Source of the DNA: Blasia pusilla
Taxonomy: Eukaryota
Length of the DNA: 64,000 nt
Direction: 5' to 3'
Assembly: GCA_050084515.1 (NCBI GenBank)
Contig: CM114271.1
Coordinates: 31,310,001 to 31,374,000 of the forward strand
A model generated the notes under the pieces. The model saw only the letters and a program-made list of their open reading frames with translations. It was not told the origin of the DNA and made no database searches. The position numbers and the translations under genes were made by a program. This document shows, piece by piece, positions 20,900 to 64,000 of this stretch; the stretch's first letter is position 1; each line of letters starts with the position of its first letter.

Positions 20900-23800
20900 C
20901 TTCTAGGATTTGGAAGAACGGGGTAGTGTGAGCACTAGTAGTGGAGTTACACGGAGTGGAGTGAGATACCAAGGAGTTACGAATGAGGAGCTACCTCGAC
21001 ATCCATCTGTGGCTGGATCGTCATCACTAGACACTAGGTCTGGTGACGAGATTGCAGAGGGAGGCAGTATCACTTGGCAGGAGATGGACGACATGGGCCA
21101 TCGAGGCATGCGTTGTTTCTTGGGTGCAGTGGGCCCCATCGACTTAGATGATTTTATCCAGGAGTTCGACACGTGGTACGACTTCCAAGAGATACGGACC
21201 CCGACACGGTTCAATCCTTTCATGGCATGGAAGGGGTTGTTCCAGCACTTGGAGGATCCTCCGATGGATGACTACATGGAGTTTTGATCACTATATTTGG
21301 TACAGATCGATGCTTGGAGGATGTATTGGGCTCCTGGGTATGTATCCACTAGTGGTCGTGAGGCATATGATGGGATCGTGAGAGGAGAGAGACCCACACC
21401 ATCAGCCCGGAGACTAGATGGAGAGGAGGGCAGTGAGACAGGCGATGTGGCAGTGACCTTTGGTGGTAGAGGGCCACCCAGCTTCAGCCCCACATTGGAG
21501 TTCTTCCGACAGTTGGGGAAGAGCTACGAGGGCGTACGCACCCACAAGCTGAAGAGTCTACATGATTTTCAGCGACGATCGGGTGACAGTCTGAGAGAGG
21601 CATTCACGCGCATGAGGAGGCTGATCATTGCTACGTATGGAGTGACTGAGGTGCAATTAGTTCAGTATTGGTAGGGGGTTCTGGATCGAGAACTATGGAG
21701 GAGAGTCCAAGATGCGCTGCTGATTCACACAGCAAAACCCACATTAAAGGTGGTCTTTGAGTTGTCTGAGCGTGTTGAGCTCAACATGAATGAGGAGCAG
21801 GTAGTGACCGCTGGATTTTCTCAAGAGTCGACGGGTCCATGAGCGACGGTGACCCCATAGGTGCCATAGCCAGCACGAGTACCACGGGAGCGGGCCCGTG
21901 TGCCCAGAGAGCAGGGCGGGTACGTGAGCCTATGAGGCAACGACCCGTTGTCGTGTCGAGAGCCTTTCTTCGAGTAAGGGCAGGCCTTCTAGCTACGGCA
22001 GACGCGGTTGATGCAAGATGAACTCTCTGAGAAGATCTCCTTTTTCAATATAAAATTATTATGTACACTCTCCATTCTCTCACGACAGGTATCACAAATG
22101 GAAGTGCCGAGGCGATCACTTCTTCGTAACATCGGACCCCGAAATTCCTAACTATAAAATCCCTATAAACTATTTTACGCTTGTATAGGAGGAAGATAGC
22201 ACAACTAGTGTTAAACCCTATTTGAGCAGGCCTATTGACGTCCATGGATTGCTATATAAGGACATACAAAGTACAATCCCATGTCCTTCCATATGTGACA
22301 ATAGGAAGGATCACCGGAGTTGGAGATTGAATGACGTGGTCCATGAACGCCTACCCAAAGTGATAAACTAAATAGCGAGTGAACGAGTGCCTATCTACAA
22401 AGAGTATCTTGACATGGTATGGATTAAGGAAAGGAAAGTCAGGCACAACTTGTGCTCCACCCCTATCCATGTTTGACAAACATTCTCTACTCTCCTCAAG
22501 AATGGGTTTTGGCGGAGTTATTTTCCCAAGAGGGGTAATCCACTCTCATTGGGGAAGTAACGAGCCAAAACATTCACTATATTAGTATGACTAAGCTCCT
22601 CTAAGGTGACAAACCTCTCATCTCCACACACACACCACACTCTAGAAACTTCTCGAAGAATAGACCATGGTCAAGTTACTCTCCCAAGAGGGGTGATCCA
22701 CTCTTATTGGAAGAGCAAGCAATCCTAAAATCATACACTCAAGAGTGACATGAAAGACTCAAGATGTGGAATAGAAGGTGATGAACCCTTGAAGGTCCCT
22801 CCTCTTTATATACTCACAAGAGACCCACAAAAGTACGAAATAGAGCTAATCTTATCTTGTGCCACATGGCTTCCTCTCAAGGCTTAGCCAATCATATTTT
22901 GACACAAGTAGATTTCCTCTTATCTCTTCCAAAATATCCTCTTTACCCACTTGAAATTTTCCAAATTACCCCAACTAACCTAGCCACCAACCAAGCCTAC
23001 TTTTGCTTTTCATTAAAGCACCAACCTCACTACTTTACTTTTATAAAGTCATCTTTTATTTATTACCTCTTTTCTAAAGTTTGGCCCGCATAAAAGAGGC
23101 ACCATAAAGAGGTTTAAACATGGGGATTTCCTTTCCCTAAGCTAATTTACTTAACACAAATAAAACTCTATCTAACACTTAACAAGGAAGGAGTTTACAC
23201 ACTGGCTGATTTTACTATACGACACCGTACCTACATATGTTGCCTAGCAGGGACCGATGTTATCTTGTTGGATGTGTGGAGGGGCCCATAGGCAGAGAGA
23301 CTGCCCAGAGCATGGAAGAGGACCACGAGCGCCTCTGATTGGTTACGAGCCATAGAGGATGGCCCCACCACAGCACCCGTGTGACTATTGCCACAGATAT
23401 GGTCACACTAGGGATAGATGCTTTGACCTTCTCCGAGAGGCACGTCTAGAGGTAGGCTGAGGGCCAGGGGACGGTCGTCTTGGAGGAGGTTGGGGAGTTC
23501 TTCCTGGACGTGGTGGTAGAGGACCACCACCAGCCACAGGAGATGGAGCAGGAGCACTAGAGCCGACACTTCTCTCACGCATCGATCAGTTGGAGTGGAG
23601 GATTGCTGCCATGACAATGATGCAGCTCAAGGAAGGCACAGAGACATGAGCAGGTGTGGCTCCAGCTAAACCCTAAACCCTCTACCTCTTACAGTGACCC
23701 GAGTGAGGATCTCGCGAGTATGGGGTTTATGTGTAGTGCAGCTCAGGTTGAGGCGGCTGCAGTGGTAACTCGGGGTGCTGTGAGAGGCACCGAGCCATCG

Positions 23801-24730
23801 AGAGGTGGAGTTGAGATTGATCCACCGGAGGGGATCGATGGACGCCAGGCCAGGGTTCCACAGTCATTCACATTATCAGAGGCACTACACGCACCATCGA
23901 TGATGCCTTGACGACTAGCGGTGCCTACAGCTCAAGCATCTATGTTGACGTCACAAGGAGTTGGAGTGACAACTCCTATGCCGGCTCAAGTGGAGTCAAT
24001 GTCGACCATACTGTTGGAGGTGGCCACAAGAGTTAGTCAGACTCCACTATTTTCCGCCATAGAGTTGGCGACGTTGGGAGTTGGACCAGCTGAGATGTTT
24101 CGGCTGGCCGCCACGTTGTGTGAGCGTGGAGGGGTGACTGCTTCTTGTTCAGAGGTAGTTGACGAGGTGGTGGACTTGCCCTCAGAGCCGGTACTTGGGA
24201 CGTTCCCCACAGAGTCATGGCATGCGACGGAGGCAAAGTTGGTAGATATGCTAGATCGACCGGCCATAGAGCGAGCAGTGGTGACACCCGGAGTAGTGTT
24301 ACTGGATAACCGAGCTGGAGTATTTCACCTGGAGTTAGTCCCACGGGGACAGTATACCACCCGCAACGCATCCTACTTGATTCGGGAGCGCAACCCTTGA
24401 TGTTAGGGAAGGCGGCGTGTTTAGCGTTGAGGTTACGGAAGGCCGACATTGAGCCTTGTCCCTTCCAGATACAGATCTTGATTGGGGGCGTGTCACCCAC
24501 GTAGTATATGACTCGACAGGAGATAGTTATCAGAGTCCAGCCAGAGCATGCGATGGATAGTGCTATGGTGCGCACACGTGCGATTACGACACCTGCTGAG
24601 TCGTACGATGTGTTGGTGGGGAGTACAATGTTATATCCCCTAGGATTCATCCTTGACTTATGGGAGGAGATCGTTGCTTATCGGCCAGGGTGGCGGTCAG
24701 GTGATGGGCGGATGAGTCAGTTACCCGTGT
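20900..24730 (+). pseudogene. Gag (two CCHC knuckles) and aspartic protease of copy 1, interrupted by a 1276-bp insert
   Basis: DDFIQEFDTW, CWMCGGAHRQRDC and CDYCHRYGHTRDRC. Protease LLDSGA is frameshifted at ~24373, followed by YDVLVG. Confidence 0.85.
21949..23224. mobile_element. 1276-bp non-coding LTR-type insertion (solo LTR or non-autonomous) inside gag
   Basis: Termini TGTCGT...ACGACA with 4-bp TSD CCGT (21945-21948 and 23225-23228). Gag sequence resumes after it. Confidence 0.85.
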
Positions 24731-25095
24731 AGTTTGCAGGACTAGGTGGTCGATCACGAGGCAAGTCTGTGACCATATTGGTAGCTTTCACAGGTAGTGT
24801 TAGTTGGCCAGGAAAGTTGTTGGAGGGGAACGCACATGTGGAGGATGTCCCAGTAGCGGATAGTCCCACGGAGAGACAGGCCATGGCGGGTGTCTCTTCC
24901 CATGTTGGCGAGACCTCTTCACCATTGTGGGGTACGACTCGAGAGCTACAAAGGAGTGCCGACGACCTCGTGAGGTAGGCGTGGAGTCATGCCTTTATCT
25001 CGGAGCAGAGAGATTCAAGTGGCGATCGGGCTCCTGGAGTGGAGACGTTGACCCCACTGGATACCACACCCATTGTGTGGCAGTGTCTAGAGGAG

Positions 25096-26070
25096 GGTGT
25101 TAAGATGTTAGATCTCTTTGGAGGGATTAGCACCGGATTGGCTGCAGTATTGCAGGCGGGCATACGGGTGCATTAGTACCTTTATGTGGAGAGAGATGAC
25201 ACTGCGTGACGAGTATCATTACGTCACGTAGCGAGATTGGTCCAGAGGTATCCTGAGTTGTTGCCGGTATCTACAGTACGGGGATATCAACAAACACTAT
25301 CCACCGACATCTCTTTGGTGGGGGCGCAGGATCTCGATAGAGTTGGCACCATTCATTTGGTGATTGCTGGATGGCCATATCAGGGTCATTCATCAGCTGG
25401 CCGAGGATTTGGATTGCATGATCCGAGGTCAGGGATGTTTTGGGAGGTGCTGTGAGTAGTACAATACTTGCAGGAGAGTCAGACAAGTTCTCCAGCATAC
25501 ATTTTGGAGAACGTGCCATTGTTGGGAGACACTCGTGCACATGTGATGACAAGTGTGCATCAAGTGAGGTCCTGGTTGGGACCTGATGTGTTGTTAGATG
25601 CAGCGAGAGTTGGGTCACGTGCCCATCGTCCACAACTATGGTGGACGAATCTGATACCATCAGAGGTACTAAGTCGAGCATACGATGGAGTCTAGAGAGC
25701 ACCACATCTCACAGTGGATGTTATTTTGGGCTCAAGGTGTCAATCTCAAGTGGTGACACGGGATGATAGACCACCGTTGGCCATGGCCAGTAGGGTGGGG
25801 GAGTTGAGGGCAGCCTTACCTACGTTGGTGAGCTTCCCAGCATCCCATGCCTTTCGTCAGGGAGGGCTAGGCATGATTTGGGATGAGGTGACCGGAGCAT
25901 TGGAGGAGCCTACAACAGATGAGCATGAGCGCGAGCGCGCCATGGGGTTCGCTACCGGTACTACGGCGGTGCTTGGGATGACTTACGCATCCCGGACAGG
26001 TGTTGGGGCAGGCAATGGATCTCAATTGTCTCACATGGATAGTCAGCCTAGGTATGGCTGAGCAGAGATG
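25096..26070 (+). pseudogene. C5 cytosine DNA methyltransferase domain within pol, copy 1
   Basis: Motif I LDLFGGIST, II YVE, IV LVIAGWP(Y)QG (catalytic Cys mutated), VI YILENV, VIII AHRPQLWWTN, IX ERAMGF, X LGQAMD. Mostly in the same frame as the protease ORF. Confidence 0.9.
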
Positions 26071-26119
26071 GATGCAAGTGTCATCTGTCTTGATATTAAT
26101 AACTAACAAAAAGAGAGAC

Positions 26120-29029
26120 TTGGGTACGCTGAAGGGTCCCGGGATACGGATTGAATTGGCTAGTGATACACCAATCTTTCATCGACCCTACAGGTATTCC
26201 GATATGGAGCGAGCCTTGATTCAGAGCAGGAGTCAAGACTTGCCACAGTCATGCCGGCAAAGAAGAATATGTATGGCAATTGGACGGATAGGCGGATGTG
26301 TGGAGATTACCGTCCTATCAACCGATAGACGAGGTCAGATCGGTACGCCATGCCTACTCTTGAGGAGATCTTTGATGCGGTAGGGCATGCAAAGATCTTC
26401 AGTACGCTAGATCTCCGTGTTGGCTATCATCAACTTCCTATCTGGTTGGAGGACAGGGAGAAGACAACATTCTGGGGGATAGATCGGTTCACGAGAGATT
26501 GCTTGTATTAGTGGCGGTTCTTACCATTTGGGTTGAAGAACGCGCCTACAGAGTTTCAGAGAGTGATGGATAGGATTCTGGTTGGCTTGGATTTTGTATG
26601 ATGTTACATAGATAATATTCTTATCTTCAGTTCCACGGTTGAGGAGCATGAGCGACACCTAGAGGAGGTGTTTCGGCAATTGCGGTTACATGGACTCAAG
26701 TTACATCCAAGCAAGTGCAGATTCTTTCAGGAGCAGATTGAGTATTTGGGACACATCATATATACTCGAGTGGGTTAGGCGTTTAGCAGACGAAGGTAGA
26801 GGCTATTGTGCAGATTCCACGCCCTACAGATGTGAGTCGAGTCCGAGCATTTCTTGGATTGGCGAACTTCTATCCACGGTATGTCAAGTGTTTTAGTGCG
26901 ATCGCAAAGTCTTTGACCTTGTTGAGGAGACTTGATCAGGTTTGGTTGTGGGGAGATGATGAAGAGCAACCATTTCAGGAGCTCAAGGACAAGTTGACGT
27001 CCTCACCCATTTTACAGAGACCGGTTAGGGGTCGCCCATTCCAGTTACATACGGATTGGAGTATGTTGGATCTAGGAGTAGTGCTTACTCAAAGGGATGA
27101 CGAGGAGAGGGAGTTCGTTGTGGCTTACGCGAGCCGATCAAAAAATATTGTAGAGGCAAAGTACAGCTCCTACGAGGGAGAGTGCTTGGCTGTAGTGTGG
27201 GCCGTGGTACATTTCACGTGCTATTTATTCGGCAATCCTTTCACACTTACTGATCATTAGCCGTTGAGGTGGTTGATGGAGTCCGACAAGCTTATGGGAA
27301 AGCTTGCCAAGTGGGCTCTATTAATATAGGAGTATGAGTTTGAGGTGGTTCATAGGCCAGGTCGGCTGAACCAAGATGCGGATGGGTTGAGTCGTTACCC
27401 ATGTCCGAGTCAGAGAGACAATACAGGAGCTCGATGGCACGGAGAGAGTGATGAGGAGATGGTTCCCGGGTGGCATGCATCTGCCTATCTTTTTTGGTTG
27501 ACTATGGCAGGTCAGCCACAGGTGATGACTCTTGTGGTGGGATTGGATGATGAGTCTTTGGATCCGGAGGTCAGTGAGGAGGCAATAGGTGGTCGTGATA
27601 TCCATGACGACGTGGAGGTTGTGGAGTTCTTGTGCACTGGCGTCATAGCAAGCACAGTGAGTGCTAGGGAGCAGGATCGGATCCTACAGCGAGCCAGGAG
27701 GTTCAGGTTGAAGGGGACTCATATTTTGCGGGTATGGGGAGATGGTAGGATACGAGTGGGACCTTATCCTTCCCAGCGAGCACGTGTTGTGCGACATGCC
27801 CATGAGGAGTTGGGACATTTTGGAGTAAAGCGTACTTACAGCTTACTCCAGGTTCAATATTGATGGCGCGGCATGCATACTCGGGTACAGTAGTTTGTGG
27901 CTAGATGTATGTTATGTGACAGAGTGTGAGCATCCTTCAATGTTCCCACTCCGCAGTTACATCCTTTTCTGATTATGGGTTTAGGTTATCGGTGGAGTTT
28001 AGACTTTGCGGGACCTTTGCCATTGATGAGACGGCATCATAGGTACGTGTTGGTCATGGTGGAGCATTTCTCCAAGTGGATAGAGTTGATGGCACTACCG
28101 GACAAGGCAAGCGAGGGAACAACTTATGCATTTCTAGATCGTGTGCTTAGTCACTTTGGTGCACCGGCGGAGGTGTTGACTAACCAGGGTACTGAGTTCA
28201 AGGGAGAGTTTCAAGCCTTGTGTGATCAGGCATTGATAGATCACCGCACCATGTCCAAAGATCATCTTGAGGCGGATGGGTTAGCGAAAAGAGTGGTACA
28301 GACGGTGAAGAGAGGATTGCGCAAGTATGGCTTGCAGCGGGGACAGTTGAGGGAGTGGGACCTATAGTTGCCATGGTTGGCTATGGGTTATCGCTTTAGT
28401 CAGAAGGCATCCTTGGCGTCATTTTCACCGTACTTTGGGAGAGAGCTAGATTTACCTGCAGCCATTGGACATGATATGGCGGAGGTGTTAGATCTTGGTG
28501 ATCTAGATATGTGGGTACAAGCATGTTCTCAGAGGACGGATATTTTTTATAGAGTTATGCCTATGGCCTTTGAGAACTTAGCTATTGCTCAACATAGAGA
28601 TACATTGAGGTACGCGACCATTCGTGGAGGAGGTTATCGTCCAAGGATTAGGAGGTTTCATCCTGGGGATTACGTGTATTTATAGTAGGCGGCACCCACA
28701 ACGCTAGATATCACTGTAGGACGCACAATCCTACGTGTGCGCGAGATATTATCGACCGAGTCCTCATGTTGGAGGGACAGGATGGTATGATTTGGAAGGA
28801 TCATATGCGCAATTGTGCGCCATGTCATCTTCCAAACATAGACGGGACAGTGGATTCGAGCTTGGCGGTGGTATTTGCAGGCTTGAGGTGTATGTTGTGC
28901 GGATCTGCGAGGGGTGCAGCCACCATGTTGGTATGTGATGGTTATTCTCGAGGGTGGCATATGTCATGTCTGACCCTCCCTCTTGATGTAGTTCCCAGGG
29001 GACGATGGATTTTTCCGAGATATGTATAG
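26120..29029 (+). pseudogene. RT, RNase H, integrase and C-terminal PHD finger, copy 1
   Basis: RPYRYS, PFGLKNAP, YID(N)IL, LHTDWS, YEGECLAVVWA, HEELGHFG, WSLDF, and PHD-like CMLC..CD..WHMSCL..P..W at 28889-29026. Confidence 0.93.
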
Positions 29030-29105
29030 GGTAGTAGGTCATATCAGAGAGATGTGGTATTTTCTATCTGGAGTTGGGGGGATCCAATTGCCAGCTAGCG
29101 GGTCG

Positions 29106-29383
29106 GTTGTGTGATCTCCATGTATATGTATGAGTTGATTTTTGTACATGTGTGGATCAACCCGTGTGTGGGGAAGATCAGTGTTGTGTGATGTAGATGT
29201 GACCAGCGATGTATGTTATATAGCGATATGTATGCGCACGACGGCGTTGTGTAATCTCCATGTATATGTATGATTTGATTTTTGTACATGTGTGGATCGA
29301 CCCGTGTGTGGGGAAGATCGGTGTTGTGTGATGTAGATGAGACCAGCGATGTATGTTGTGTAGCGATATGTATGCGCATGACA
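29106..29383 (+). repeat. Two 138-bp 'B' repeats (29106-29243, 29246-29383) separated by GC
   Basis: Near-identical tandem copies GTTGTGT..GCGCAC/TGAC. They share CAGCGATGTATGTT and the GCACGAC end with the B repeat of copy 2. Confidence 0.92.
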
Positions 29384-40400: not shown

Positions 40401-40797
40401 CCTATGGGTGAAGCTCGAACGTTCATCTTCCTCCAGTCCAGTTCTAGAGTGATTCAAGAGAGCCTACATTCAAATTTCTAGAGTGGAAGCCGGAAGATTA
40501 CAAAACCTTCTTTCAGAAGAGTTTCGGAAATTGGCTGGACCTCGGATTCTTCACCCGTTTAGAACTAGTTTTTAGCCTAATTAGCTCGACCTGTACATAT
40601 ATCTATGGCGACGTACTATTCTTGCCGCAAAAACTTCACTAGACTCTGAAAGGCTCCATGAAATGATTTAGATTCATCGGTCGCAAAGGACTCTTATTAG
40701 CGTCAGTCGGTATCTCATGCTGGAGCTGGAGTAGTGAAGTTCATTTATTACTTGTCAACTCGAGAGCTCGAGCCAGCCACACGTATATATAGCGAGT

Positions 40798-51478: not shown

Positions 51479-52593
51479 CGGTTCAAATCTTCATTTTCAT
51501 GTAGCAGTTTCAAAATAAAAATCTCAAAAGATATATCATGTTTGGTTTTTAATTCCATCCCCACAAGTCAACAAACCCTCGAACTTTGTAGGTTGCTCCC
51601 ACATCCTTCAACAAATCTCCATGAAAAGTTTCAAGACTAGAAAATGAGTAGAGGGAAAGTTGTTTTCTCCGGCTTACGAACACGCAACTTCCTTGTGGAG
51701 GGGATGAAACATAGCATTAGACCGTTGGATCTTAATAAAACGTTTGAGAGAGGTGTAACATCTTATTAGAAGTGATGTGAATGGTTCAGATCATGAAATT
51801 GGCTTTTATAAAGCCTCCAAAAATTTCCTTAGGGTTTTAGGGTTTTGAATTTTAACTTGGTCTTGCAAGATCATTTGCCTTTGAAAAAAATCTATCATTC
51901 TTAGGATGCAGAGATACATGTTCTCAAAACGTTTCAAATTTTTTTAAGGTCTTATGATGAGGGTTTGTCTACATGACCTCACCCAAAGAATATCTACCTA
52001 AAAGCTAGTGGAAATTGTGGACGAGTTGAGTTAATTTTCATCTACAAAAGCCAAAGGAATATTTTGTACGAAACTCATATAATTTCTACTAAAAAAATTA
52101 TTTTCTCATGAATTTAACGGTTCAAATCTTCATGTTCATGTAGCAATTTCAAAATAAAAATCTCAAAATATATATCATGTTTGAAATACCCTAATTTGGT
52201 TACTCCAAAATTTTTAATATATGTCCATGAAAATTTTGAGGACTATAAAATGAGTATAGGGAAAGTTGTGCTCTCCGGCACAAGAACGTGCAACTCCCTT
52301 GTTGGAGGGGATGGAACATAGCATTGGAGCGTTTGATTTGAAAGAAAATTTTGAGGGATGTGAAGCATTCCGCTAGAGATGATGAGAATGGTTTAGATCA
52401 TGAAATTTGGCTTTTATAAAGCCTCCAAAATTTTCCTTAGGGTTTTAGGGTTTGGAATTTTAACTTAGTCTTGGAAGATCATTTGACTTTGAAAAAATCC
52501 ATCATTCTAAGGATGCAGAGATACATGTCTTGAGAAAGTTTCAGACTTTTTGAGATCTTATGATGAGGGTTTGTCTACATGACCTCACCCAAA
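51479..52593. repeat. ~480-500-bp tandem direct duplication (~51479-51987 and ~52118-52593)
   Basis: Both copies run from CGGTTCAAATCTTCAT to CTACATGACCTCACCCAAAG. Confidence 0.88.
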
Positions 52594-52729
52594 GTTTATT
52601 TGTATTTTTTATGTTTTTCAAGAAGGTATTTTTAATTTTCTTTGGGACTTTTAAGATATATATTTTTATTAAATATATATCTAAAATAAAATATTTTTAT
52701 GAATTTACGAACTTGTATCCCTTGCTTTT

Positions 52730-53096
52730 TGTCATGACCATACGGATTATGTCATAGAGTATAGTGTGCTAGTAGAGGCCATACCTTATGTAGGGCCGCA
52801 GTGTCTAGGTAGAGATGCAATTTCATACATAGGGTTGGGGGTTACTCAGTTGAGGGTGACTTTTCCAGTAGGGCCCGCTCTTAGGTTGGAGGATATAAGG
52901 TGGAGTGCACTCAAAGAATAGTTAGATCTTTGAGTTGAGCCTGTTGCGTTGGGAGTTAGCCTTGGTAGTGAGTAGAGCTCTTGGCTATGGTATTCCCGCA
53001 AGCTTCGACCTCGATTCTCCCATCGTGGAGTGGGTTTGGCTCGATTGTATGTGATTCTATACGTGTTTTATAACACTAGGTATTTCACAGATTTCA
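52730..53096 (+). repeat. Repeat A1 (promoter-bearing LTR part)
   Basis: Near-identical to 61957-62321. TATAA at 52894. Similarity to A2 continues ~20 nt past the TAACA/TGACA and ends at GATTTCA. Confidence 0.93.
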
Positions 53097-53109
53097 CTCA
53101 AAGAACTAA
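53096..53109 (+). promoter_or_regulatory. Self-priming primer-binding site, copy 2
   Basis: ACTCAAAGAACTAA is complementary to TTAGTTCTTTGAGT. The match is perfect in A2 (62149-62162) and has 1 mismatch in A1 (52922-52935), 28 nt after the TATA. Confidence 0.7.
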
Positions 53110-54523
53110 TGTAGATCGATGGTGGCTTCGATTGTAGATCAGTAGGATCTAGTTAGGGCTGATTGTGTACTCAACCGTGGATGTTCGTGGCTTGTGGCCT
53201 ATGTCGGAGGTGTGAATCTGGTGCGTGGTTGGTTGGGAAAGAAGCGCCTTGCTGAGAGCTTTCCAATTCGCTTTAGATCGCTGGATTTCGTCAAGGGAGT
53301 TGGAAGTTATCAAGGATTGAAGATTCTAATTTGTGTTCGACGGTTTTCTGATGTGGAGAGCTTGGAGTGCGGAAGCTCTGTTGAAGTTCATCCAGATTGG
53401 GTGAGAGGTTCCTATTGCTACTTGTATTTTGATCTCATGTGAAGCTATCTGCTTGAGTGTGTGGAGGGTTGCGGATTTCTGCGTGCATGAAACTGGGCGG
53501 AATCGCTGTCGGATTTGCGATTCTGGAGGTGTATGGACAGCAAGTTTGTCTGATTTTTAGCTCGGAGTACAGAGCTCGGTTGTAGCTGATTTTTTGCGGA
53601 GAGATAGCTATGGTGGTCAATTAAATTCTGGTTGAAACAGATTCAATTTTGGTTGAGGATTTGTGGAGAAATCGCTGATTGAAATTTTGCAGACTAGCTC
53701 AAGGTCTGCCTATGGTGGACAGCGGATCGGAGGGGCTGGTTGGTTGGTGACTCATTCATTGTTGGAGACGCCTATCCCATTGGGGGCGCCCTGGTTTAGG
53801 GTGGTTTGTGGTTGCTTGGGGCAAGTGGGCGAGTGGGCGTGAGAGGCGGAGCAAGGAGCAAGCAAGCTTGCTTGCTTGCTTGGGCGTGAGGCAATTTTTG
53901 CAGGATTTGTGATTTGAGTGTCACCCATCTTTCGGTTATTCTGCCTGGAAGATGCTTAATTGCTCAGTTCTTAACTATGCCAGTGTACACATTGGTGTAT
54001 CTCATTTGGTGCCGTTCGGAGATGTGTTAGGCGCTTTATGCATCTCATGTTTTTGGTTGGTGTACTTCTAGCGCATAGTACGGTGTAGCCTCTCCATGCA
54101 GGTGATATTTTCAGGTGCTGCGAGTTCGACTAGCACGTCATCGACCTGCGGCAGAGTAGCTATTACGTTAGAATTGTGTGGTGGGTTCTGTGGATTCAGG
54201 GGGCGCCACATTTGGTGGATTGTGTTACCTTGATTTCCATTTGCGATTGGAGGGTTGTCGTTGGACTTCTTGTGTTTGGATCCCCTCCATCGTTGCTTCT
54301 TGCTTGCGCGCCCATTGTTAGGGTTGATGCTGATTTCCAGAGTAGTGTTACTCCTGTGTGCTACCGATAGTGAGGTTGGAGTGATGACCAGTAGAACGTG
54401 GGAGGCTTCTTGTGGTGATGACAGGTTAGGTTACCTACACCCATAGCTAGTAGAGCTAGAATAGTATAGCGACATCAACGTCACTTGGTTACTTAGTGGT
54501 GGTAATTTGGTGGTAGTGCGGCA

Positions 54524-57353
54524 TTGTCGTTGGTCATCACGGAGCTGTCGGGTGGTCTGGTTGGGGACCGTGGTGCGGATAGTGGTGATTTCACACAGAG
54601 TGGATTTAGGCATCGGCTACCTTTTCCACTTCCGACGGTTGATGAAGAGGAGGACGAGGGTGTTCCAAACACCGAGTCTTCTACGTTGTTATCGAGTGTT
54701 GCAGCTCCACTGATTTGGGACATGGACGGGATATATGGGGCCATGAAGGGCCCACTCGGGTGCAGTGGGTACCATTGAGTTGGAGGACTTCGTGCAAGAG
54801 TTTGATACGTGGTGTGATATGCAGATGTTGCGGAACGCCACGTTGTTTACACCCTTCTTGGCTTGGAAGGGGTTGTTTCAGCACTTGGAGGGACCACCCA
54901 TGGATAATTACCATGAGTTTAGGAAGGACCATTTTGCTGAGATTGAGGCGTGGAGACAATATTAGTCTCCAGGCTATGTGTCTATCACCTATGGTGGTAT
55001 TGGTAGTAGTGCTCCTACTATGCAAGCTAGCCCGACGTTGAGTGCTACGAGTACGATCCGGAGTGGGGGTACCAGTGGAGGTACCCATGGAGGTACCAGT
55101 GGGGGTACTAGTGGAGGTACTAGTGCCCCACCATCGTTTAGCCCAGTTGAAGAAGAAATATCAGGGAGTGAAGACAGAGAAGTTGAGGAGTCTTCAAGAA
55201 TTTGAGCGAAAGACTGGTGAGAGTCTTCGTGAGGCATACACTTGTATGCGACACTTAATTTCAATTACCCAGGGTGTGACTAAGGCTCAGGCAGTCCAGT
55301 TTTGGTATGGGATCTTCGACAGAGAGTTGCGCCGCAGGGTACGTGATGCTACTCTTATGAGTGATGATTCACCCATATTGACCCATGTATTTGCTCTATC
55401 TAAGAAGATTGAGCTTAACATGGTGAAGGAGAGAGTGGTGACATCCGCATTCAGTAGGGATACAACTACTACTTCTCGTGTTCAGCAGCCCACCTCACAG
55501 TCTCGTAATAGTGATGGTGGTAGTAGTAGTGGGAGTCGTGGGGGATACATAGGACCTCAATCAGGTCCTAGAGGGACACTTGCGCAGAGACCATTGCCTT
55601 CATTTGCTGCCCCGCAGCAAGGACAGTCATGTTGGACATGTGGAGGTGATCATGTTAGGAAGTTTTGTCCCCAAGAGGATGGGAGACGGACTTTGGAGGA
55701 TGGGCCTTAGTCGGCCCCAACTCAGTGTGATCATTGCGGAAGACCAGGTCATCCTCGAGAGTGTTGCTTTGATCTTCATCCAGAGTTGAGATCAGGCCAC
55801 GGCCGTGGTGGAGTAGCTCCGAGAGGCCGAGGTGGTAGGGGTGGTAGAGGTGGACCAGTGGTTGGAGAGCCTACGGTGGCCACCCCTACCACTACGACAG
55901 AGTCAGCTATGGCTTCCAGGATTGAGCAGTTGGAGCAGAAGTTGGCTACTATGGCTGGTATCCAGCATAGATCAGGTTCGGGAGCAGGGGCTTCCACCTC
56001 TTATGGAGGGGATGATCTCTCTTATATGGCAAGTGCAACACAGGTTGAGGCATCAGCTGTAGTTACGAGAGGAGCCACTCAAGCGTCAGAGCCACGTGGT
56101 GCTATTGTGGAGTTGGACCCACAGAGGGGTGACGCTGGGAGGCAGGCTAGGCTTCCCCAGTCATTCTTGTTGTCTGAGGTGCTTAGGACTTCATCCATGG
56201 TTCCTACGCAGCCTATTGAGCCGAAAGTGGGGACAGAGGCATCTACATCGCGTATAGTAGACACGGATCCAGCATCCACTACAGTATTGCGGATGGCAAC
56301 TTCAGTGTTGGGATCCCCATTGTTTTCGGCCACGGAGTTGATGGCTTTAGGAGTTCACTTAGCTCCTGTATTTCAGCTAGCAGCCACGTTGTGTGAACAT
56401 GGGGTATTCTTGCTACACATCTTTGAGGTGGATGAGGGTGTTGCGGTGGAGCAACCTCAGTATGTCGTATAGCATTGAGTACGGTGCTACTTGGCGAGCA
56501 AAGCGGCAAAGATGGATGCATTACCGGCCCGGCCACCATTGATCGTGAGAGGCTTACACCTGGTGTATGTATGTTGGACAACCGGAGTGGGATATTCCGA
56601 TTGGTGAGTCCTAGAGGACAGGTGTATAGACCAGATAGAGTCTTGTTAGACTCTGGTGCCCAACCTTTGATGTTGGGAAAGGCGGCATGTATTGGTTTGG
56701 GTATTTGGAGGTCAGAGCTTGAGCCTTGCCCATTCCAGATTCAAACATCACTTGGAGGAGCCAATGATAGGTCTCAATTCATGACACGGGAGAAGTTTTC
56801 TATACAGTTGAGACCAGATCATGCGACTGATAGTTCCCGGTTGGGAGTACCTGCAGTGGTCACATCAGCCGAGTCGTATGATGTACTAGTTGGAGGAGCA
56901 GTATTGTACCCGATGGGTTTTCAGATGGATTACTGGACTAAGACAACGTCTTATAGACCTGGTTGGCAGTCCGGGGATGGACGTATGAGCCAAGTTCCTG
57001 TGAGATTTATTTATGGGGCTCGACCAGGAGGGTCTTCCCCAACAGTGTTAGTATATGTGGCTGGTTTTAGTGGAGTAGTCACTTGGCCAGAAGACTTTTT
57101 GGAGGGTAATGTTTCTGCTATGGATTCTCCTGAGGAGGTAGAGGAGGTCTCTATTTTTGCAGCAGTGGCATCTTCATCGTTGGATGTGCCACTTTGGAGT
57201 TCAGGCGGTGCACTACGGGAGGAGGCTGATTGCCTAGTGCATGAGGCTTGGTGTGAGGCTGTTATACCTCACGAGGAAGAGGAGGACCAAAGGCGGACTC
57301 CTACTTCTGGTCCAGTTGGGTTATCCCCTTTGGATAATACACCCATTGTATGA
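54524..57353 (+). pseudogene. Gag (two CCHC knuckles) and aspartic protease, copy 2
   Basis: EDFVQEFDTW, CWTCGGDHVRKFC, CDHCGRPGHPRECC, an RGG-rich stretch, and protease VLLDSGA...YDVLVG. Confidence 0.9.
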
Positions 57354-57368
57354 CAGTATCCGCCAAAG

Positions 57369-58345
57369 GGCATTTGTGTGTTAGATCTCTTTGGTGGGAT
57401 TAGCACTGGTTTGGCAGCAGTGTTGCAGGCCGGTATTCCTGTGCGGAGATACGTGTATGTGGAGCAAGATGAGACGGCCCAGAGAGTCTCATCCCGACAT
57501 ATTGGTGAGTTGATGCGGAGATATCCTGAGTTGTTGCCGCCATCAGCTATTCGTGGGTACCAGCGTGCTTTGCCATCACACATTGCATTGTTGGGGGCGC
57601 AGGACCTTTAGAGGGTTGGTCCTTTGGATTTGGTGATTGCTAGATGGCCATGTCAGGGTCATACACGTGCTGGTCATGGTGAGGGATTACACGAACCTAG
57701 GTCTCGATTGTTTTGGGAGATGTTACGGGTGTTACGACATCTTCAGGTTCATCAGGCACGTGCTCTAGCTTACATTCTGGAGAATGTTCCATTGTTGGGT
57801 GACACTCGGACCCGGATGATGGCGAGTGTTCATAAGGTGTGGTCTTGGATTGGACCAACGGTGTTGTTGGATGCAGCGCGAGTTGGCTCGCGTGCACATC
57901 GTCCACGCTTGTGGTGGACAACCTTGTTGCCTAGGGAGGTTCTACGTTGAGCATATGATGCAGTGCAGCAGGATCCTTGCCTTACAGTGGATAGTATCTT
58001 GGATACTGGGCGACTTTCTCAGGTGGTGAGGGTTATTGATCGGTCACCCATGGCAATGGTGAACCGTGTGGGCCAGCCTAGAATGGCACTACCCACATTT
58101 GTGAGTTTTCCCTCGTCACATGCATACAGGGAAGGTGGTCTCGGGCTTGTATGGGATTCTCATGTGCGACAGTTGGTGGAGCCTAACGCTGATGAGAGAG
58201 AGCATGCGATGGGATTTGCTACTGGTGTGACATCGGTTGCTTCCATTTCTGAGGCTTCACGACGTCATGTGTTGGGTCAAGCCATGGACCTGAATTGTTT
58301 GACTTGGATTTTGAGTCTTGGTATGGCCGAGCAGCGTCAACTTCG
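57369..58345 (+). pseudogene. C5 cytosine DNA methyltransferase domain within pol, copy 2
   Basis: VLDLFGGIST (I), YVEQD (II), DLVIA(R)WPCQG (IV, catalytic PC intact), YILENV (VI), AHRPRLWWT (VIII), EHAMGF (IX), LGQAMD (X). ORFs starting at 56475, 57378, 57624 and 57963 share one frame and are split only by point stops. Confidence 0.93.
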
Positions 58346-58701
58346 GACTGTGTCTATGGGTCTTCCACCCCTTGTAATGAGCTCCATGGCTACCGGGGCG
58401 GTAGAGGCATCGGCTCGGGGCGAGGAGAGTAGTATTTTGCATCCTTGGAGTAAATGGGATGTAATGGCTGGGCATGTGGAGTTGGTTGCTCATGTTGGTG
58501 GAGGAGTTATTTGCTCAGATGATGGTGTAGCTAAGGGTGTACCATCTTGTGAGGGGTTGCGAGCGACCAATGGCATCGTCCTCCCCCCATTGTGCGGTGG
58601 AGGAGACTTGGGAGCCATTACTTGGGCCCAAGCTTACGGGAGGTGAGAAACGACGCTTGACATAGTTCCTACGTGCTTATAGGAGTTGTTTTGCCTTTAG
58701 C

Positions 58702-61675
58702 ATGAAGGAGTTGAGTGCTCTGGTTGGACCCGGTGTACGGATTGATTTGGCTAGTGATACGCCAATCTTCCGTCGTCCCTATCGATATAGTGATATGGAG
58801 AGGGACCTGATTCAGAGTAGGACGTTGGACCTTTTGGAGGCTGGATTAGTGGAGTTGTTGCATGGAGAGTATGCGTCAGCCACTGTCATGCCTGCTAAAA
58901 AGGATATGCATGGCAACTATCCGGATATGTGGAGATTACCGTCCTATCAATCGGAAAACCAAGGCCGATAGGTATGCCATGCCTACACTTGAGGAGATCT
59001 TTGATGTGGTGGGATAGGCAAAGATTTTCAGTACTTTGGATCTTCGGGCAAGATACCATTAATTGCCGATTCGGGAGAGTGATAAGGCCAAGACAACATT
59101 TTGGGGGGTCAACTCTCATGGCAAGGATTGTTTGTACCAGTGGAAATTCTTATCCTTTGGGTTGAAGAATGCACCTGACGAGTTTCAGAGAGTGATGGAC
59201 AGGATCCTAGCAAGGTTGGATTTTGTTCGGTGTTACATTGATGATATCTTGGTGTTCAGTAACACGGTGGAGGAGCATCAGATGCATTTGCAGATGGTGT
59301 TTGAGCGGTTGAAAGCTCATGGTCTACGTTTGCATCCAAGAAAGTGTAAGTTCTTCCATGAGGATGTTGAGTACTTGAGTCATGTGATCTATCCAGGTGG
59401 TTTGGGAGCAAGCAAAGGTGGAGGCTATTGCACTTATTCCGCATCCGGTAGATGTGAGTAGAGTTCGAGCATTCATGGGATTGGCGAAGTACTATCGGAG
59501 GTATGTGAAGGGATTTAGTGCTATGGCAAAGCCTTTGAACCAATTGCTGAAATCAGATCAAGAGTGGCACTGGGGATATGATCAGGAGAGAGCTTTTGTG
59601 GAGCTTAAGGCCCAGTTGGTGGCAGCGCCTATCTTGAGGAGACCTATCAGAGGGCGCCCATTTCACTTACACACTGATTGGAGTAGGTTGGGACTTGGAG
59701 CGGTGTTGACACAACATGATGATGAGCACATGGAGTTTGTGGTGGCCTATGCAAGTCGTTCGAATAATGCAGCAAAGTCGCGCTATAGTTCATATGAGGG
59801 AGAATGCTTGGCAGTAGTGTGGATTGTGGCACACTTTAGGTGTTACTTGTTTGGCACACAGTTTACTCTTGTTACTGATTACCAGCCGCTCAAGTGGTTG
59901 ATGGAGTCTGACAAGCTTACAGGGAAGCTTGCACGGTGGGCTCTTATCTTGCAGGAGTATGACTTCCAGGTGGTACATAGACCTAGAGTTGCCAACCTTA
60001 ATGCTAATGGGTTGAGTAGGAACCCATGTACTAGCCAAGAGGATACAAGTGGGGCTAGATGGCATGGCGAGGTTGATGAGGAGATGGTGTCAGGTTGGCA
60101 TGCATCCGCCTTTTTATGTTGGTTAGGGGTGGACTCTAGTATGGAGGACCACATGATATCTTACTCTAGTCAGAGGGTAGATGGATAGCCTTCATATCCT
60201 AAGGTTGGAGATGGTAGTACGGATCAGCATGATATTCATGATGATGCGTTGGTGTTGGAGTTCCTACGGACCAGTAGGGTGCCAGGCATAGTGAGTGCCA
60301 AGGAGCGAGACCGTGTTCTTCAACGTGCTAAGAGGTATCGATTGGAGGGAACACATATTCTCCGTGTGTGGGAGGATGGTAGAGTACGAGTAGTGCCGCA
60401 TTTGGCTCGAGAGAGAGCGCATTGTGCGGACATGCCCATGAGGAGTTGGGACATTTTGGGGTAAAGCGTACGTATAGCTTACTCCTTGGTCAGTATTGGT
60501 GGCGTGGCATGCATACTCAGGTGCAACAGTTGGTGTCAAGTTGTATGGTTTGTGACCGGGTGAGGGCATCATTCAATGCCCCTACACCACAATTACACCC
60601 CTTGCCTATTATGGGGTTGGGTTATTGTTGGAGTGTGGACTTTGCGGGACCGTTACCGCTGACTATACGACATCATCGATATGTGTTGGTGATGGTGGAG
60701 CACTTCTCCAAGTGGATTGAGTTGGTGGCATTACCTAACAAGGCAAGTGAGGGAACGGCGTATGCGTTTCTTGATAGAGTGCTTAGTCATTTTGGTGGAC
60801 TAGCTGAAGTGCTGACCGACCAGGGTACAGAGTATCAGGGTGAGTTTCAGGTCTTGTGTGACAAGGCATTGATTGATCATCGGACCACGTCTCGAGATCA
60901 TCCAGAGACGGATGGTTTGGCTGAGCGTGTGGTTCAGACGGTGAAGAGGGCATTGCGCAAGTATGGCCTACAGAAGGGGCATCTTGGAGACTGGGATATT
61001 CAGTTGCCATGGTTAGCCATGGGGTATAGGTTCAGTCGCCAAGCATCCTTGGCTTCCTTCTCACCTTATATTCTGATATACGGCCGAGATCCAGACTTGC
61101 CAGCAGCAATTTGTCGGGAGTCTAGTGAGGTGGTGAACCTTGATGACCCAGAGATGTGGATGAGAGTGTGTTCTCAACGGGCAGAGCTCTTTCGGAGAGT
61201 TATGCCAACAGCCTTTGAGAATCTTGCCATTGCTCAACACAGGGATACATTGCGGTATGCAACCATTCGAGGTGGAGGTTATCGACCATCAATTCGTAGG
61301 TTCCATGTGGGGGACTATCTCTATTTTCAGCAGATTGCACCGTCAACGTTGGATATGACGGTAGGCCGCACTATTTTATGAGTGCCCGAGGTCTTAGGTT
61401 CTTGAGTTCTCATGTTGGAGGGTCGTGATGGAGTTGTTTGGAAGGACCATGTGCGTAATTGTGCGCCATATCATCTTCCAAATGTGGATGGTACTGTTGA
61501 CCCAAGCTTAGCCATTATACGTGCTAGCTTGAGATGCATGTTGTGTGGGTCTGCTGGTAACGCAGCCCGTATGTTGGTGTGTGATCGGGGTTCTAGGGGT
61601 TGGCACATGATGTGTTTGACTCCACGTATGGATGTTGTTCCTATTGTAAGGTGGGTTTTTCCTCGATGTACTTAG
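58702..61675 (+). pseudogene. RT, RNase H, integrase and C-terminal PHD finger, copy 2
   Basis: RRPYRYS, FGLKNAP, CYIDDILVF, LHTDWS, YEGECLAV, HHCC (HEELGH..CMVC), DDE (SVDF, TDQG, LAERVV) and PHD at 61535-61672. Confidence 0.95.
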
Positions 61676-61838
61676 GAGAGGTAGATGACTTGATCTTTGC
61701 ATGATATGGATTACAGATGTGCGACTAACGATGGGGCAACCTAGCACCCGGCCTTCTGATTCGTGCACCCAAGAAGGTGTATAGCATGTAGTAGATGTAT
61801 AGGGCTTCCTGGGAGTTAGAGGGACCTAACCGCCAGTT

Positions 61839-61845
61839 AGGGGGG
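61839..61845 (+). promoter_or_regulatory. Polypurine tract, upstream of B1 rather than A2
   Basis: AGGGGGG lies 2 nt before B1. There is no purine run directly before A2. Confidence 0.6.
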
Positions 61846-61847
61846 CA

Positions 61848-62427
61848 AGTTGTGGTACACTTGTGTTTGTGGATGCTCTCGTCTATGTTATGTATGTATG
61901 TGAGTATGGTATGTCAGCGATGTATGTTGTATGATGATGTGGATTCGCACGACAACTGTCATAACCATACGGATTATGTCGTAGAGTATAGTGTGCTAGT
62001 AGAGGCCATACCTTATGTAGGGCCGCAGTGTCTAGGTAGAGATGCAATTTCATACATAGGGTTGGGGGTTACTTGATTGAGGGTGACTTTTCCAGTAGGG
62101 ACCGCTCTTAGGTTGGAGGATATAAGGTGGAGTGCACTCAAAGAACAGTTAGTTCTTTGAGTTGAGCCTGTTGCGTTGGGAGTTAGCCTTGGTAGTGAGT
62201 AGAGCTCTTGGCTATGGTGTTTCCCGCAAGCTTCGACCTCGATTCTCCCATCGTGGAATGGATTTGGCTCGATTGTATGTGATTCTATACGTGTTTTATG
62301 ACAGTAGGTTCACGGATTTCAGTTGTGGTACACTTGTGTTTGTGGATGCTCTCGTCTATGTTATGTATGTATATGAGTATGGTATGTCAGCGATGTATGT
62401 TGTATGACGATGTAAATTCGCACGACA
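61848..62427 (+). repeat. 3' terminal cassette B1 (61848-61954) - AC - A2 (61957-62321) - B2 (62321-62427)
   Basis: B1 and B2 are near-identical 107-bp copies AGTTGTGGTACAC...CGCACGACA. A2 matches A1. Confidence 0.93.
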
Positions 62428-64000
62428 TTTTTTCTAATTGGATTTTAGATTGTGTCACCCCTTGCTTACATACCAGTGAAAATTTGGGGAAAAAAAAAAA
62501 CCCTATCTTAGCAGTCAATACTTCCAAAATTTGGCCATTTTTTAATAAAAGTGCCCCTATCTTTGCTTGCACGGGGGCAAGTAATCCAATGAAGGGTAAA
62601 GTCCCCGAGCCCCCCTCGGCCAACACCTATGGAGTCAACGAGCAAGCTATCCAATTTGGATCTTCACACATTTATGAATTCCCACTCAAGATTACTGCAA
62701 CAACGATCGGAGCAAAATCAATGAGAAAAATCATTGATGTGGAGGGAGAGAAATTTTGGAATCTCAGTCATTTGTCTAGTTGGTTTGTTTGATATCATCT
62801 CTTCTTCGCTTTCTTCACACATCGTCTCCCCTCCGCTTTCTCCACAAAGTTGCTCTTCCTCAAATTACCTACTCGTTCCTTCCTTTATCTTGTTACTTTA
62901 CTTTTTTGACCTGAAATTGAGTACACCATCCAATTAAGCAGAGTTGGGTGGATAGGAGTTACTTTGATTTGAAAGAACAAGTCTCAAGTTTCATAAAAAA
63001 AAATGTATGGATAAAAATAATTACCCATGTGAATAAAGGTAACCCTCTTCCAACCACCAATAAAGGCATGGCATGAGTTTGCTAGATTCAATCTCCAGAA
63101 AAAGTAGTCCAAAATGACAATTAATAGTAGAGTGCTTCACTTGGCCCATGGAAATAATACTTAATTATAATTATTCTTTAGAGAGCTTCACTTCTTATAG
63201 AAGGCAATTTCTTTCCCCTTTTAGTAATCCCCCATGCTCCATAAATAGTATAGATTCCTCCATGAAAATTTGAACAATATCTTTTCTTCTCCTTCTATTT
63301 TTCCCACCCAAATAACATTGACTTTTAAATTTTTTTGTTAATTTTAATTAATTAAAATTTTCCCTTTTGAATTCGAATTCATTTTCCCTCCCAAAATATC
63401 ACATGCCAATAATTTGAAAAAAAAATTAAAAATCATTTCAAATTTTATTTTATTTTATTTAACCCTAAAAGAATAATGAAATTCCACTCTTCTAAATGAT
63501 TCCACTCTTCAATTAAAATTTAAATGATATCCCAAACCCCTAAATAAATATATCTTTCAATAAAATTTAAACAAAATTTATTCTTTCTCCACTAGAATTC
63601 ATTTCCGCTTCCCCTTAAATATAAATTAAGAAAAACATTTATTCATTTTTCTAATTATCACACTTTATTATCATTTAAGAGCACCCATTATAATACTAAT
63701 TAGTTAAATCATAAGGTATGAAGTAATAGAAAATAGAAAATTATTTTCCTCTTCCATTCAAATTCGTTGTAACCTCCTCTTCTGATTCATTTTTACCCAT
63801 CTAGTGACCTTGTGACTCAAAATTCTGACATGTTGCACTTTTGTTTTATTAATTTGTTATTTTTTTATTTTCCTTGTGTGGTCCCCCATTATAATATAAA
63901 TAGATAACTCGTCATCTTAAGCCAGTTTTTTCTCAACTGAAAATTTTAATTTCAACTAGCTACGATTACTCTTAACCTCGGATTTCCACGACCATTCATT

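Follow-up and report, generated by a model that had tools for sequence, protein, structure and literature searches.

A Gypsy-type retrotransposon family with a DNMT3-like domain, a probable land-plant counterpart of an algal element

Results

A DNMT3-type domain inside a Gypsy pol region

We analyzed a stretch of 64,000 nucleotides (contig CM114271.1 of assembly GCA_050084515.1, positions 31,310,001 to 31,374,000 of the forward strand), referred to here as the window; all coordinates are those of the window. Our reading, to which we assign a probability of about 0.9, is that a Ty3/Gypsy-type retrotransposon is present in the window as two dead copies, which belong to two old subfamilies. In the single gag-pol polyprotein of this element a DNMT3-type cytosine methyltransferase (DNMT) domain lies between the protease (PR) and the reverse transcriptase (RT) and a PHD finger follows the integrase. 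The element would be the land-plant, most likely liverwort, counterpart of KnitGypsy-Dnmt3 from the charophyte alga Klebsormidium nitens, with sibling copies that are transcribed. The domain is present in both copies:

25096..26070, + strand: DNMT3-like domain of copy 1 (Pfam, tblastn; several stops)
57369..58345, + strand: DNMT3-like C5 cytosine methyltransferase domain of copy 2 (Pfam, phmmer against PDB; motifs I-X in canonical order)

The copy 2 frame 56436-58646, read through with X at its stops, has motif I starting at about 57372 and the domain ending at about 58345. FGG (motif I), PCQ (IV), ENV (VI), RxR (VIII), GF (IX) and G-Q (X) follow in that order. Against the profile PF00145 (cut-off 22 bits), copy 2 scored 29.3 bits (E value 7.5e-7) and copy 1 scored 25.3 bits (E value 1.3e-5). 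The initial annotation of this DNA had placed a C5 methyltransferase with canonical motif order at 57369-58345, in frame between protease and RT, and had proposed a PF00145 hidden Markov model check on the stop-corrected translation. Both coordinates and order proved right, both copies exceed the cut-off, and the in-frame position agrees with the read-through frame and with the Pfam matches on the pieces downstream.

In a phmmer search of all PDB chains, the top match was the DNMT3A catalytic domain (E value 7.6e-13). The runners-up were DNMT3B (1.3e-10), DNMT3C (1.7e-9), plant DRM (2.6e-5) and HhaI (0.28). The alignment with DNMT3A is collinear over motifs I-VIII (query 5-222, chain 5-198), and motifs IX-X form a second, weak stretch (query 281-313, chain 236-268). 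Because the alignment is collinear, the motif order is canonical and not permuted as in DRM. We also modeled a relative, protein P0025, with AlphaFold from a 17-row alignment (predicted local distance difference test score 71.5, predicted template-modelling score 0.75). The top Foldseek matches of the model were all DNMT3A, DNMT3B and DNMT3C catalytic domains (E values from 2e-16 upward). Template-modelling scores by target were 0.76-0.81 against isolated chains of these domains, with about 20-22% identity to human DNMT3A and DNMT3B in the fold alignment. By these comparisons the domain is a C5 methyltransferase of the non-rearranged DNMT3 type.

The domain resembles host DNMT3A and DNMT3B of animals and plant DNMT3 in its catalytic domain, its best sequence and fold matches and its motif order from I to X. 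Unlike these host enzymes, it is embedded in a retrotransposon polyprotein. Pfam found neither a PWWP domain nor any zinc-finger domain other than the C-terminal PHD beside the methyltransferase.

Neither window copy combines the catalytic Cys with an open reading frame; the Cys is kept across the family. Copy 2 retains Pro-Cys-Gln and has in-frame stops at 57609-57611 and 57948-57950, with another just upstream at 57351-57353. The copy 1 domain occupies the equivalent position in pol, as judged from the read-through of 24733-26383 and collinear tblastn matches. That read-through contains 11 stops, the catalytic Cys is replaced by Tyr (PYQ), and the frame shifts near 26000. With these stops and frameshifts both copies are dead, and therefore neither can be active itself.

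Coding organization of the element

The remaining coding features of copy 2, and the extent of copy 1, are as follows:

21084..29382, + strand: copy 1, older, more decayed and of a different subfamily (tblastn, repeat comparison)
54717..56541, + strand: gag with two CCHC zinc knuckles (tblastn with M. polymorpha P0026, open reading frames; stop at 55708-55710, frame changes)
56538..57368, + strand: aspartic protease region and linker to the methyltransferase (D-S-G at about 56643-56663, tblastn)
58666..59461, + strand: reverse transcriptase (YIDD) in two frames (RVT_1 E value 4.8e-23 on 59063-59461; tblastn)
59388..60188, + strand: RNase H (RT_RNaseH E value 6e-35)
60383..61381, + strand: integrase with H2C2 zinc finger and DDE core (Integrase_H2C2 E value 4.7e-14, rve E value 1.8e-14)
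61535..61669, + strand: C-terminal PHD finger, decayed, with 2 of 8 zinc ligands replaced (Pfam PHD 23.5 bits, cut-off 24)

The order is gag-PR-DNMT-RT-RNaseH-integrase-PHD, with a pol of the Ty3/Gypsy type and several frame changes in copy 2. It is the Gypsy order of gag, aspartic protease, RT, RNaseH and DDE integrase, with the methyltransferase inserted between PR and RT. Pfam gave no protease match in either window copy. In relatives, Asp_protease_2 reached 28.3 bits in P0011, above the cut-off, and 22 bits in P0082. P0082 has zf-CCHC (also matched by Pfam), protease, DNA_methylase, RVT_1, RNaseH and integrase in a single uninterrupted protein of 2188 amino acids. A tyrosine recombinase (phage-integrase domain) was not found by Pfam on the copy 2 pieces, which match rve and Integrase_H2C2 instead.

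The C4HC3 signature of the PHD finger is intact in M. polymorpha P0070 (36.7 bits). Most of 31 tblastn rows (29 from metagenome loci, two from the window) likewise retain the ligands; some are lost in each window copy. Copy 1 and copy 2 are 72-81% identical in DNA over matched segments of 107-300 nt. The match of copy 1 gag to relatives is broken for about 1.4 kb, between 21830 and 23248.

Relatives and two architectures

To place the window copies we surveyed proteins and metagenome loci. Word-indexed searches with the domain returned 22 longer proteins and 52 of similar length. Of the named ones, 21 come from Marchantia polymorpha, 63-76% identical and all annotated as "hypothetical" or under automatic names. 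Two proteins come from Calypogeia fissa (75% and 61%) and two from Sphagnum (63% and 52%). The family is also carried by 80 metagenome loci. An exhaustive search with a profile built from element copies, in which each protein stands for one cluster at 50% identity, gave 13,367 proteins at an E value of 0.001 or less, 2,343 at 1e-10 and 533 at 1e-30. The best 150 matches all exceeded 247 bits.

Domain order, assessed with jackhmmer among 223 proteins, falls into two types. About 68 proteins have the order PR-DNMT-RT (type A) and about 88 have RT-RNaseH-DNMT-integrase-PHD (type B). The type B lineage comprises P0018-P0024 and many of P0077-P0223. A FastTree phylogeny was built for 178 DNMT domains, and a single change accounts for its 46 type-A and 84 type-B rows (supports 88 and 95). 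The RT-RNaseH tree of 52 rows (5 type A, 47 type B) also needs one change (support 99). Both trees are unrooted and were made by a fast method, and the DNMT tree consists of element domains without an outgroup. As each tree needs only one change, the same DNMT3 domain occupies two places in Pol in sister lineages.

In the DNMT tree, copy 2 lies beside P0025 and adjoins an eight-row M. polymorpha clade (seven rows named in the tree, and P0036). Copy 1 branches deeper, near a Calypogeia sequence, and all fall inside a 14-row clade with 100% local support. These placements indicate that the two window copies represent subfamilies that are old relative to the diversification of liverworts. Together with the lectin gene described below, they point to a land-plant host, most probably a liverwort different from the species whose proteins are annotated.

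Conservation and selection

The catalytic residues are nearly invariant. Of the 176 aligned relatives, 173 retain the catalytic Cys and 175 the Glu of motif VI; the Gly of motif IX is kept by 174, and the two Args of motif VIII by 173 and 174. The residue before the catalytic Cys of motif IV varies. In 70 of the 176 relatives, mostly type B, Glu replaces the Pro to give Glu-Cys-Gln, an unusual motif IV variant for C5 methyltransferases. The bryophyte clade keeps Pro-Cys.

We compared the two window copies after pairing their codons via tblastn to intact relatives. For the DNMT domain (325 codons), the proportions of nonsynonymous (pN) and synonymous (pS) differences are 0.214 and 0.686. The ratio of nonsynonymous to synonymous divergence (dN/dS) is about 0.14 (bootstrap 0.06-0.20). 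The ratio is 0.22 for RT, 0.105 for RNaseH, 0.10-0.16 for integrase, 0.10 for the PHD tail, 0.27 for the C-terminal half of gag and 0.40 for the PR-DNMT linker. These ratios are rough because synonymous sites are saturated (pS 0.63-0.78); for the PR region and the N-terminal half of gag, saturation of dS precluded an estimate.

Among 72 loci, compared in pairs that are not mutually independent, the median DNMT dN/dS falls from 0.87 at dS below 0.1 to 0.20-0.23 at dS above 0.5. Over the same span the drop is from 0.51 to 0.11-0.17 in RT-RNaseH and from 1.29 to 0.24-0.29 in the protease region. Such a pattern is expected if differences at low dS reflect decay after insertion and the deep ones arose in replicating lineages. 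For the DNMT domain, purifying selection along deep branches is supported by its values of about 0.14-0.23, close to those of RT and RNaseH.

These data bear on whether the association is an accident of nesting or assembly, with a host DNMT3 gene hit by a Gypsy element or a one-off, meaningless capture. In keeping with such an accident, the two window copies are degenerate and lie among many other repeats, with a Helitron remnant nearby. The accident is nevertheless highly improbable, given the in-frame order shared by both copies, the uninterrupted P0082 and the 46 type-A relatives. As judged by Pfam, neither a PWWP domain nor, apart from the C-terminal PHD, a zinc finger accompanies the methyltransferase; the DNMT and RT-RNaseH trees agree on the split between the two types, and the domain is under purifying selection. 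The initial annotation had argued from the two copies that the domain is a heritable family feature and had named neutral evolution as a result that would count against it. The feature is borne out by both copies, the 80 metagenome loci, dozens of annotated bryophyte proteins and the selection on deep branches, where the dN/dS values are not neutral.

Split repeats and insertion boundaries

Copy 2 lacks the two identical long terminal repeats (LTRs) at its ends that are typical of Ty3/Gypsy elements. A repeat A is found at the left terminus, a repeat B at the right terminus and a B-A junction inside (A-coding-B-A-B), equivalent to an LTR of B+A in permuted form. The boundary features are:

52726..52729, + strand: left copy of a putative 4-bp target-site duplication, TTTT (repeated at 62428-62431)
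52730..53096, + strand: repeat A1, left terminal, starting TG and ending CA (95-96% identical to A2)
53097..54716, + strand: long leader from A1 to gag (begins with conserved CTCAAAGAACT)
61836..61847, + strand: polypurine-tract-like run GGGGGG directly 5' of B1 (conserved in all 6 split-repeat loci)
61848..61954, + strand: repeat B1, then a 2-nt spacer at 61955-61956 before A2 (96% identical to B2)
61957..62321, + strand: repeat A2 (repeat comparison with A1)
62322..62427, + strand: repeat B2, ending CA, right terminus of copy 2 (then TTTT at 62428-62431)

A1 and A2 diverge by about 5%, so copy 2 is not recent.

To determine how common this layout is, we examined 12 long metagenome loci. The order A1...B1-A2-B2 is present in six of them (L038, L061, L077, L076, L073 and L043). 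L076 and L077 share their flanks on both sides and are one insertion in two records; counted once, they leave five independent loci. L012 ends at the contig edge after A2, and L053 and L060 have one repeat pair in another geometry. The leader start CTCAAAGAACT after A1 recurs in L061, L077, L076, L073 and L043, and L038 has the variant TTTAAAGAACT. B begins with GTTGTGGTAC after the purine tract and ends in ...CGACA; next come two variable bases and TGTCATGACC, with which A begins. The B1/A2 junction ...ACA-NN-TGTCAT... is conserved across loci. A ends in ...TTTTCA and is followed by B2 or, after A1, by the leader. At the A2|B2 boundary L043 has about 18 extra bases (L043:10837-10855), where A2 and B2 join directly in the other loci and in the window.

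Perfect 4-bp duplications lie outside A1 and B2 in four of five independent evaluable elements: the window copy (TTTT), L077 (CATA), L073 (AAGG) and L043 (TCTC). The TTTT duplication is a T run and weak taken alone. The duplication of L038 matches at 3 of 4 bases, and the A1 of L061 is truncated. Because 4-bp duplications flank A1 and B2, the inserted unit would begin where A begins and finish where B ends, and would have entered through a staggered cut of the kind made by a DDE integrase. A truncated third LTR had been considered as an explanation for the 107-bp segment preceding the 3' repeat. This was dropped, as the same A-B-A-B order and duplications occur in independent loci.

Copy 1 has two B-like repeats, 29106-29242 and 29246-29382, arranged in tandem with a spacer of 2-3 nt and no A between them. 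A search of the window for a second element start with the leader motif that follows A1 gave 11 matches where 7.6 were expected, no excess beyond chance. With ARAGORN, the window yielded no tRNA genes. At 51500-52600 an AT-rich unit of about 606 bp occurs twice in tandem (72-96% identical in pieces), ending about 130 bp short of the A1 repeat of copy 2.

Transcription of sibling copies

Sequence words of the element occur in 20 listed sequencing runs, none of them an RNA run. Three raw RNA-seq runs with the same species label as the best DNA run were matched at 92% identity or more, covering about 6-12% of each run. The runs yielded 3,835, 3,727 and 4,082 matching reads. All 30 bins, spanning the whole element, were covered, with a depth over the DNMT bins of 28-75. 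The first mate lies on the minus strand almost throughout in all three runs; given the usual stranded libraries, the RNA is therefore sense. Only 24 reads per run are at least 99% like the window copy, so the RNA derives from sibling copies. The family is transcribed from its sense strand, and from siblings of the copies described here. Each of these runs also contains reads (16, 29 and 45) in which 60192 is followed, after 9 other letters, by 61203. Such reads therefore come from a transcribed sibling copy without about 1 kb of the integrase region.

Neighbouring sequence in the window

An uninterrupted frame of 548 amino acids at 40738-42384 encodes a lectin with a legume-lectin domain (E value 3.9e-51). 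Its best named relatives are from M. polymorpha (53%), Riccia sorocarpa and R. fluitans (43-45%) and M. paleacea (34%). A Helitron remnant spans 10118-15920, with Helitron_like_N at 12057-12524 (E value 5.8e-15) and a piece of a Pif1-type helicase at 15489-15920. The long pair of open reading frames at 10118-11851 had no Pfam match. A frame of 147 amino acids at 2046-2489 matches a low-molecular-weight phosphotyrosine phosphatase (LMWPc E value 2.5e-17).

Discussion

Kinship with the algal element

The initial annotation pointed to a Gypsy element with a DNMT in the charophyte Klebsormidium. De Mendoza et al. (2018, Nat Commun 9:1341, PMC5890265) indeed describe KnitGypsy-Dnmt3 of K. nitens; what we say of this article refers to the portion of its text available to us. 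Like the element described here, KnitGypsy-Dnmt3 has a non-rearranged DNMT3-type domain within a Gypsy Pol open reading frame and transcribed copies, and the domain is under purifying selection (published Ka/Ks below 0.2, and 0.14-0.23 here on deep comparisons). According to the legend of Fig. 4c, the K. nitens elements combine "the structure of repeats" of DIRS with the domain composition of Gypsy, and the article defines the DIRS repeat structure as A-coding-B-A-B. This is the layout of copy 2 and of 6 of the 12 long loci. The split repeats are the strongest tie to the published family.

The two differ in host, a charophyte alga there and a land plant (liverwort-like) here, and in the C-terminal PHD on the integrase, as 'PHD' is not mentioned in that portion of the article. 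Nor were target duplications around split repeats or a sister architecture found in it. DIRS/PAT-like retrotransposons with a tyrosine recombinase, including SymbioDIRS-Dnmt3, also have split direct repeats (A1...B1A2B2), and some have DNMT3 in Pol. Unlike them, the present element has a DDE integrase and no tyrosine recombinase, 4-bp target duplications and the Gypsy order RT-RNaseH-integrase.

The persistence of the lineage into land plants, which the initial annotation had raised as a possibility, is upheld by the relatives in Marchantia polymorpha, Calypogeia fissa and Sphagnum and by the liverwort-like lectin gene of the window. A 2019 opinion paper (PMC6338049) described DNA-methylase-encoding transposons as absent from land plants such as tracheophytes. 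Two later papers, PMC12344493 and bioRxiv 10.64898/2026.05.21.726589, cite the 2018 work when they mention DNMT3 of Gypsy elements or of retrotransposons in "streptophytes". An earlier description in bryophytes or other land plants was not found in the literature searched, though the supplements of the 2018 and "streptophytes" papers may list bryophyte copies. What is new here is the land-plant occurrence of a known kind of element previously described in an alga.

Several observations weigh against this reading, in addition to the saturation of synonymous sites between the window copies, the dependence among the 72-locus pairs and the scarcity of reads closely matching the window. Kinship with KnitGypsy-Dnmt3 is suggested by shared architecture and repeats and not by a tree. 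The lectin, the single host-like gene tested, is at most 53% identical to liverwort proteins. The A-B-A-B order is absent from 5 of the 12 long loci, with no repeats in L033, L048 and L031 and the other geometry in L053 and L060. For copy 1 no A1 repeat was found, and the B-B tandem takes the place of A-B-A-B. A primer binding site of the tRNA type was not recognised in the copy 2 leader. Both window copies are broken and no open frame longer than 493 amino acids is present in the 80 metagenome loci, and read coverage by itself is no proof of full-length or translated RNA. The K. nitens domain and a domain from a Symbiodinium long interspersed element (LINE) produced no DNA methylation in yeast, a result that the authors call inconclusive (PMC5890265).

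What the methyltransferase may do

Of the possible roles for the enzyme, methylation of the element's own new DNA is the one we favor, tentatively and at less than even odds. Self-methylation of new DNA was proposed for DIRS elements by de Mendoza et al. (PMC5890265). By analogy, the methyltransferase would be made within Gag-Pol and travel with RT and integrase. It would methylate the newly made DNA of the element before or at integration, and the new copy would enter chromatin already resembling DNA methylated by the host. The PHD finger on the integrase may read the state of the histone H3 tail and steer integration, as chromodomains do in chromoviruses. The integrase chromodomain of chromoviruses is taken to have this steering role, and in both groups the integrase has a fused chromatin-reader module at its C-terminus. 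In the present family this module is a PHD finger and not a chromodomain, the LTRs are not ordinary ones and there is an extra enzymatic domain.

Alternatively, the domain could act on the host. The PHD finger and integrase would tether the complex to a given chromatin state, and the enzyme would methylate DNA around the insertion, reinforcing a heterochromatic safe haven or damping the host response. A PHD finger with an intact C4HC3 is a family feature in both architectures, the methyltransferase domain is under selection, and the data fit methylation of nearby host DNA as well as of element DNA. The position in Pol, next to RT in one type and next to RNaseH and integrase in the other, would put the enzyme together with the cDNA and fits self-methylation at least equally. 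We regard action on the host as unlikely.

It is somewhat less likely still that the domain no longer methylates DNA. It might instead place 5-methylcytosine on the RNA of the element transcript, be a structural or S-adenosylmethionine-binding part of the particle, or act as a decoy for a host factor. The silence of the K. nitens and Symbiodinium domains in yeast is compatible with this, and for the enzyme of the LINE the authors bring up methylation of RNA (PMC5890265). So is the Glu before the catalytic Cys in 70 of the 176 relatives, which belong mostly to the other architecture. Against it, 173-175 of the 176 relatives retain the complete set of catalytic residues of a DNA C5 methyltransferase, sequence and fold both match best to DNA enzymes, of the DNMT3 type and not DNMT2, and the bryophyte clade keeps Pro-Cys.

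Self-methylation might take place on a circle, although we consider a circular intermediate doubtful, at about one chance in four by our estimate. It would fit the split direct repeats, as A-int-B-A-B is formally what results when a circle containing int and two (B+A) units is opened at a B|A junction. A circle of the two-LTR type (LTR = B+A) would be opened at the internal B|A junction, a CA-NN-TG site. The integrated unit would then begin with A and end with B, consistent with the polypurine tract before B1, the CA-NN-TG junctions and the 4-bp duplications outside A1 and B2.

A joint reading of all these elements is more speculative than the circle taken by itself. A large and old Gypsy-DNMT3 clade (at least 533 clusters at 50% identity), with two sister architectures, would have persisted into land plants. 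The circle would be the integration substrate, the integrase would open it at the internal CA-NN-TG and so give rise to the split repeats, and DNMT3 would methylate the episome before insertion at a site chosen by the PHD finger.

Implications

The benefit that a DNA methyltransferase brings to a retrotransposon is a standing question, and the sole published example from the plant lineage is algal. Marchantia polymorpha, a transformable model, holds the family in its genome, annotated as hypothetical proteins, and the question is therefore testable with existing genetics, methylomes and long-read data. The split repeats with target duplications, and one domain at two positions in sister lineages, are also of interest for the study of retrotransposition. 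Automatic counts of DNMT3 genes in bryophyte genomes would be inflated by copies of the element.

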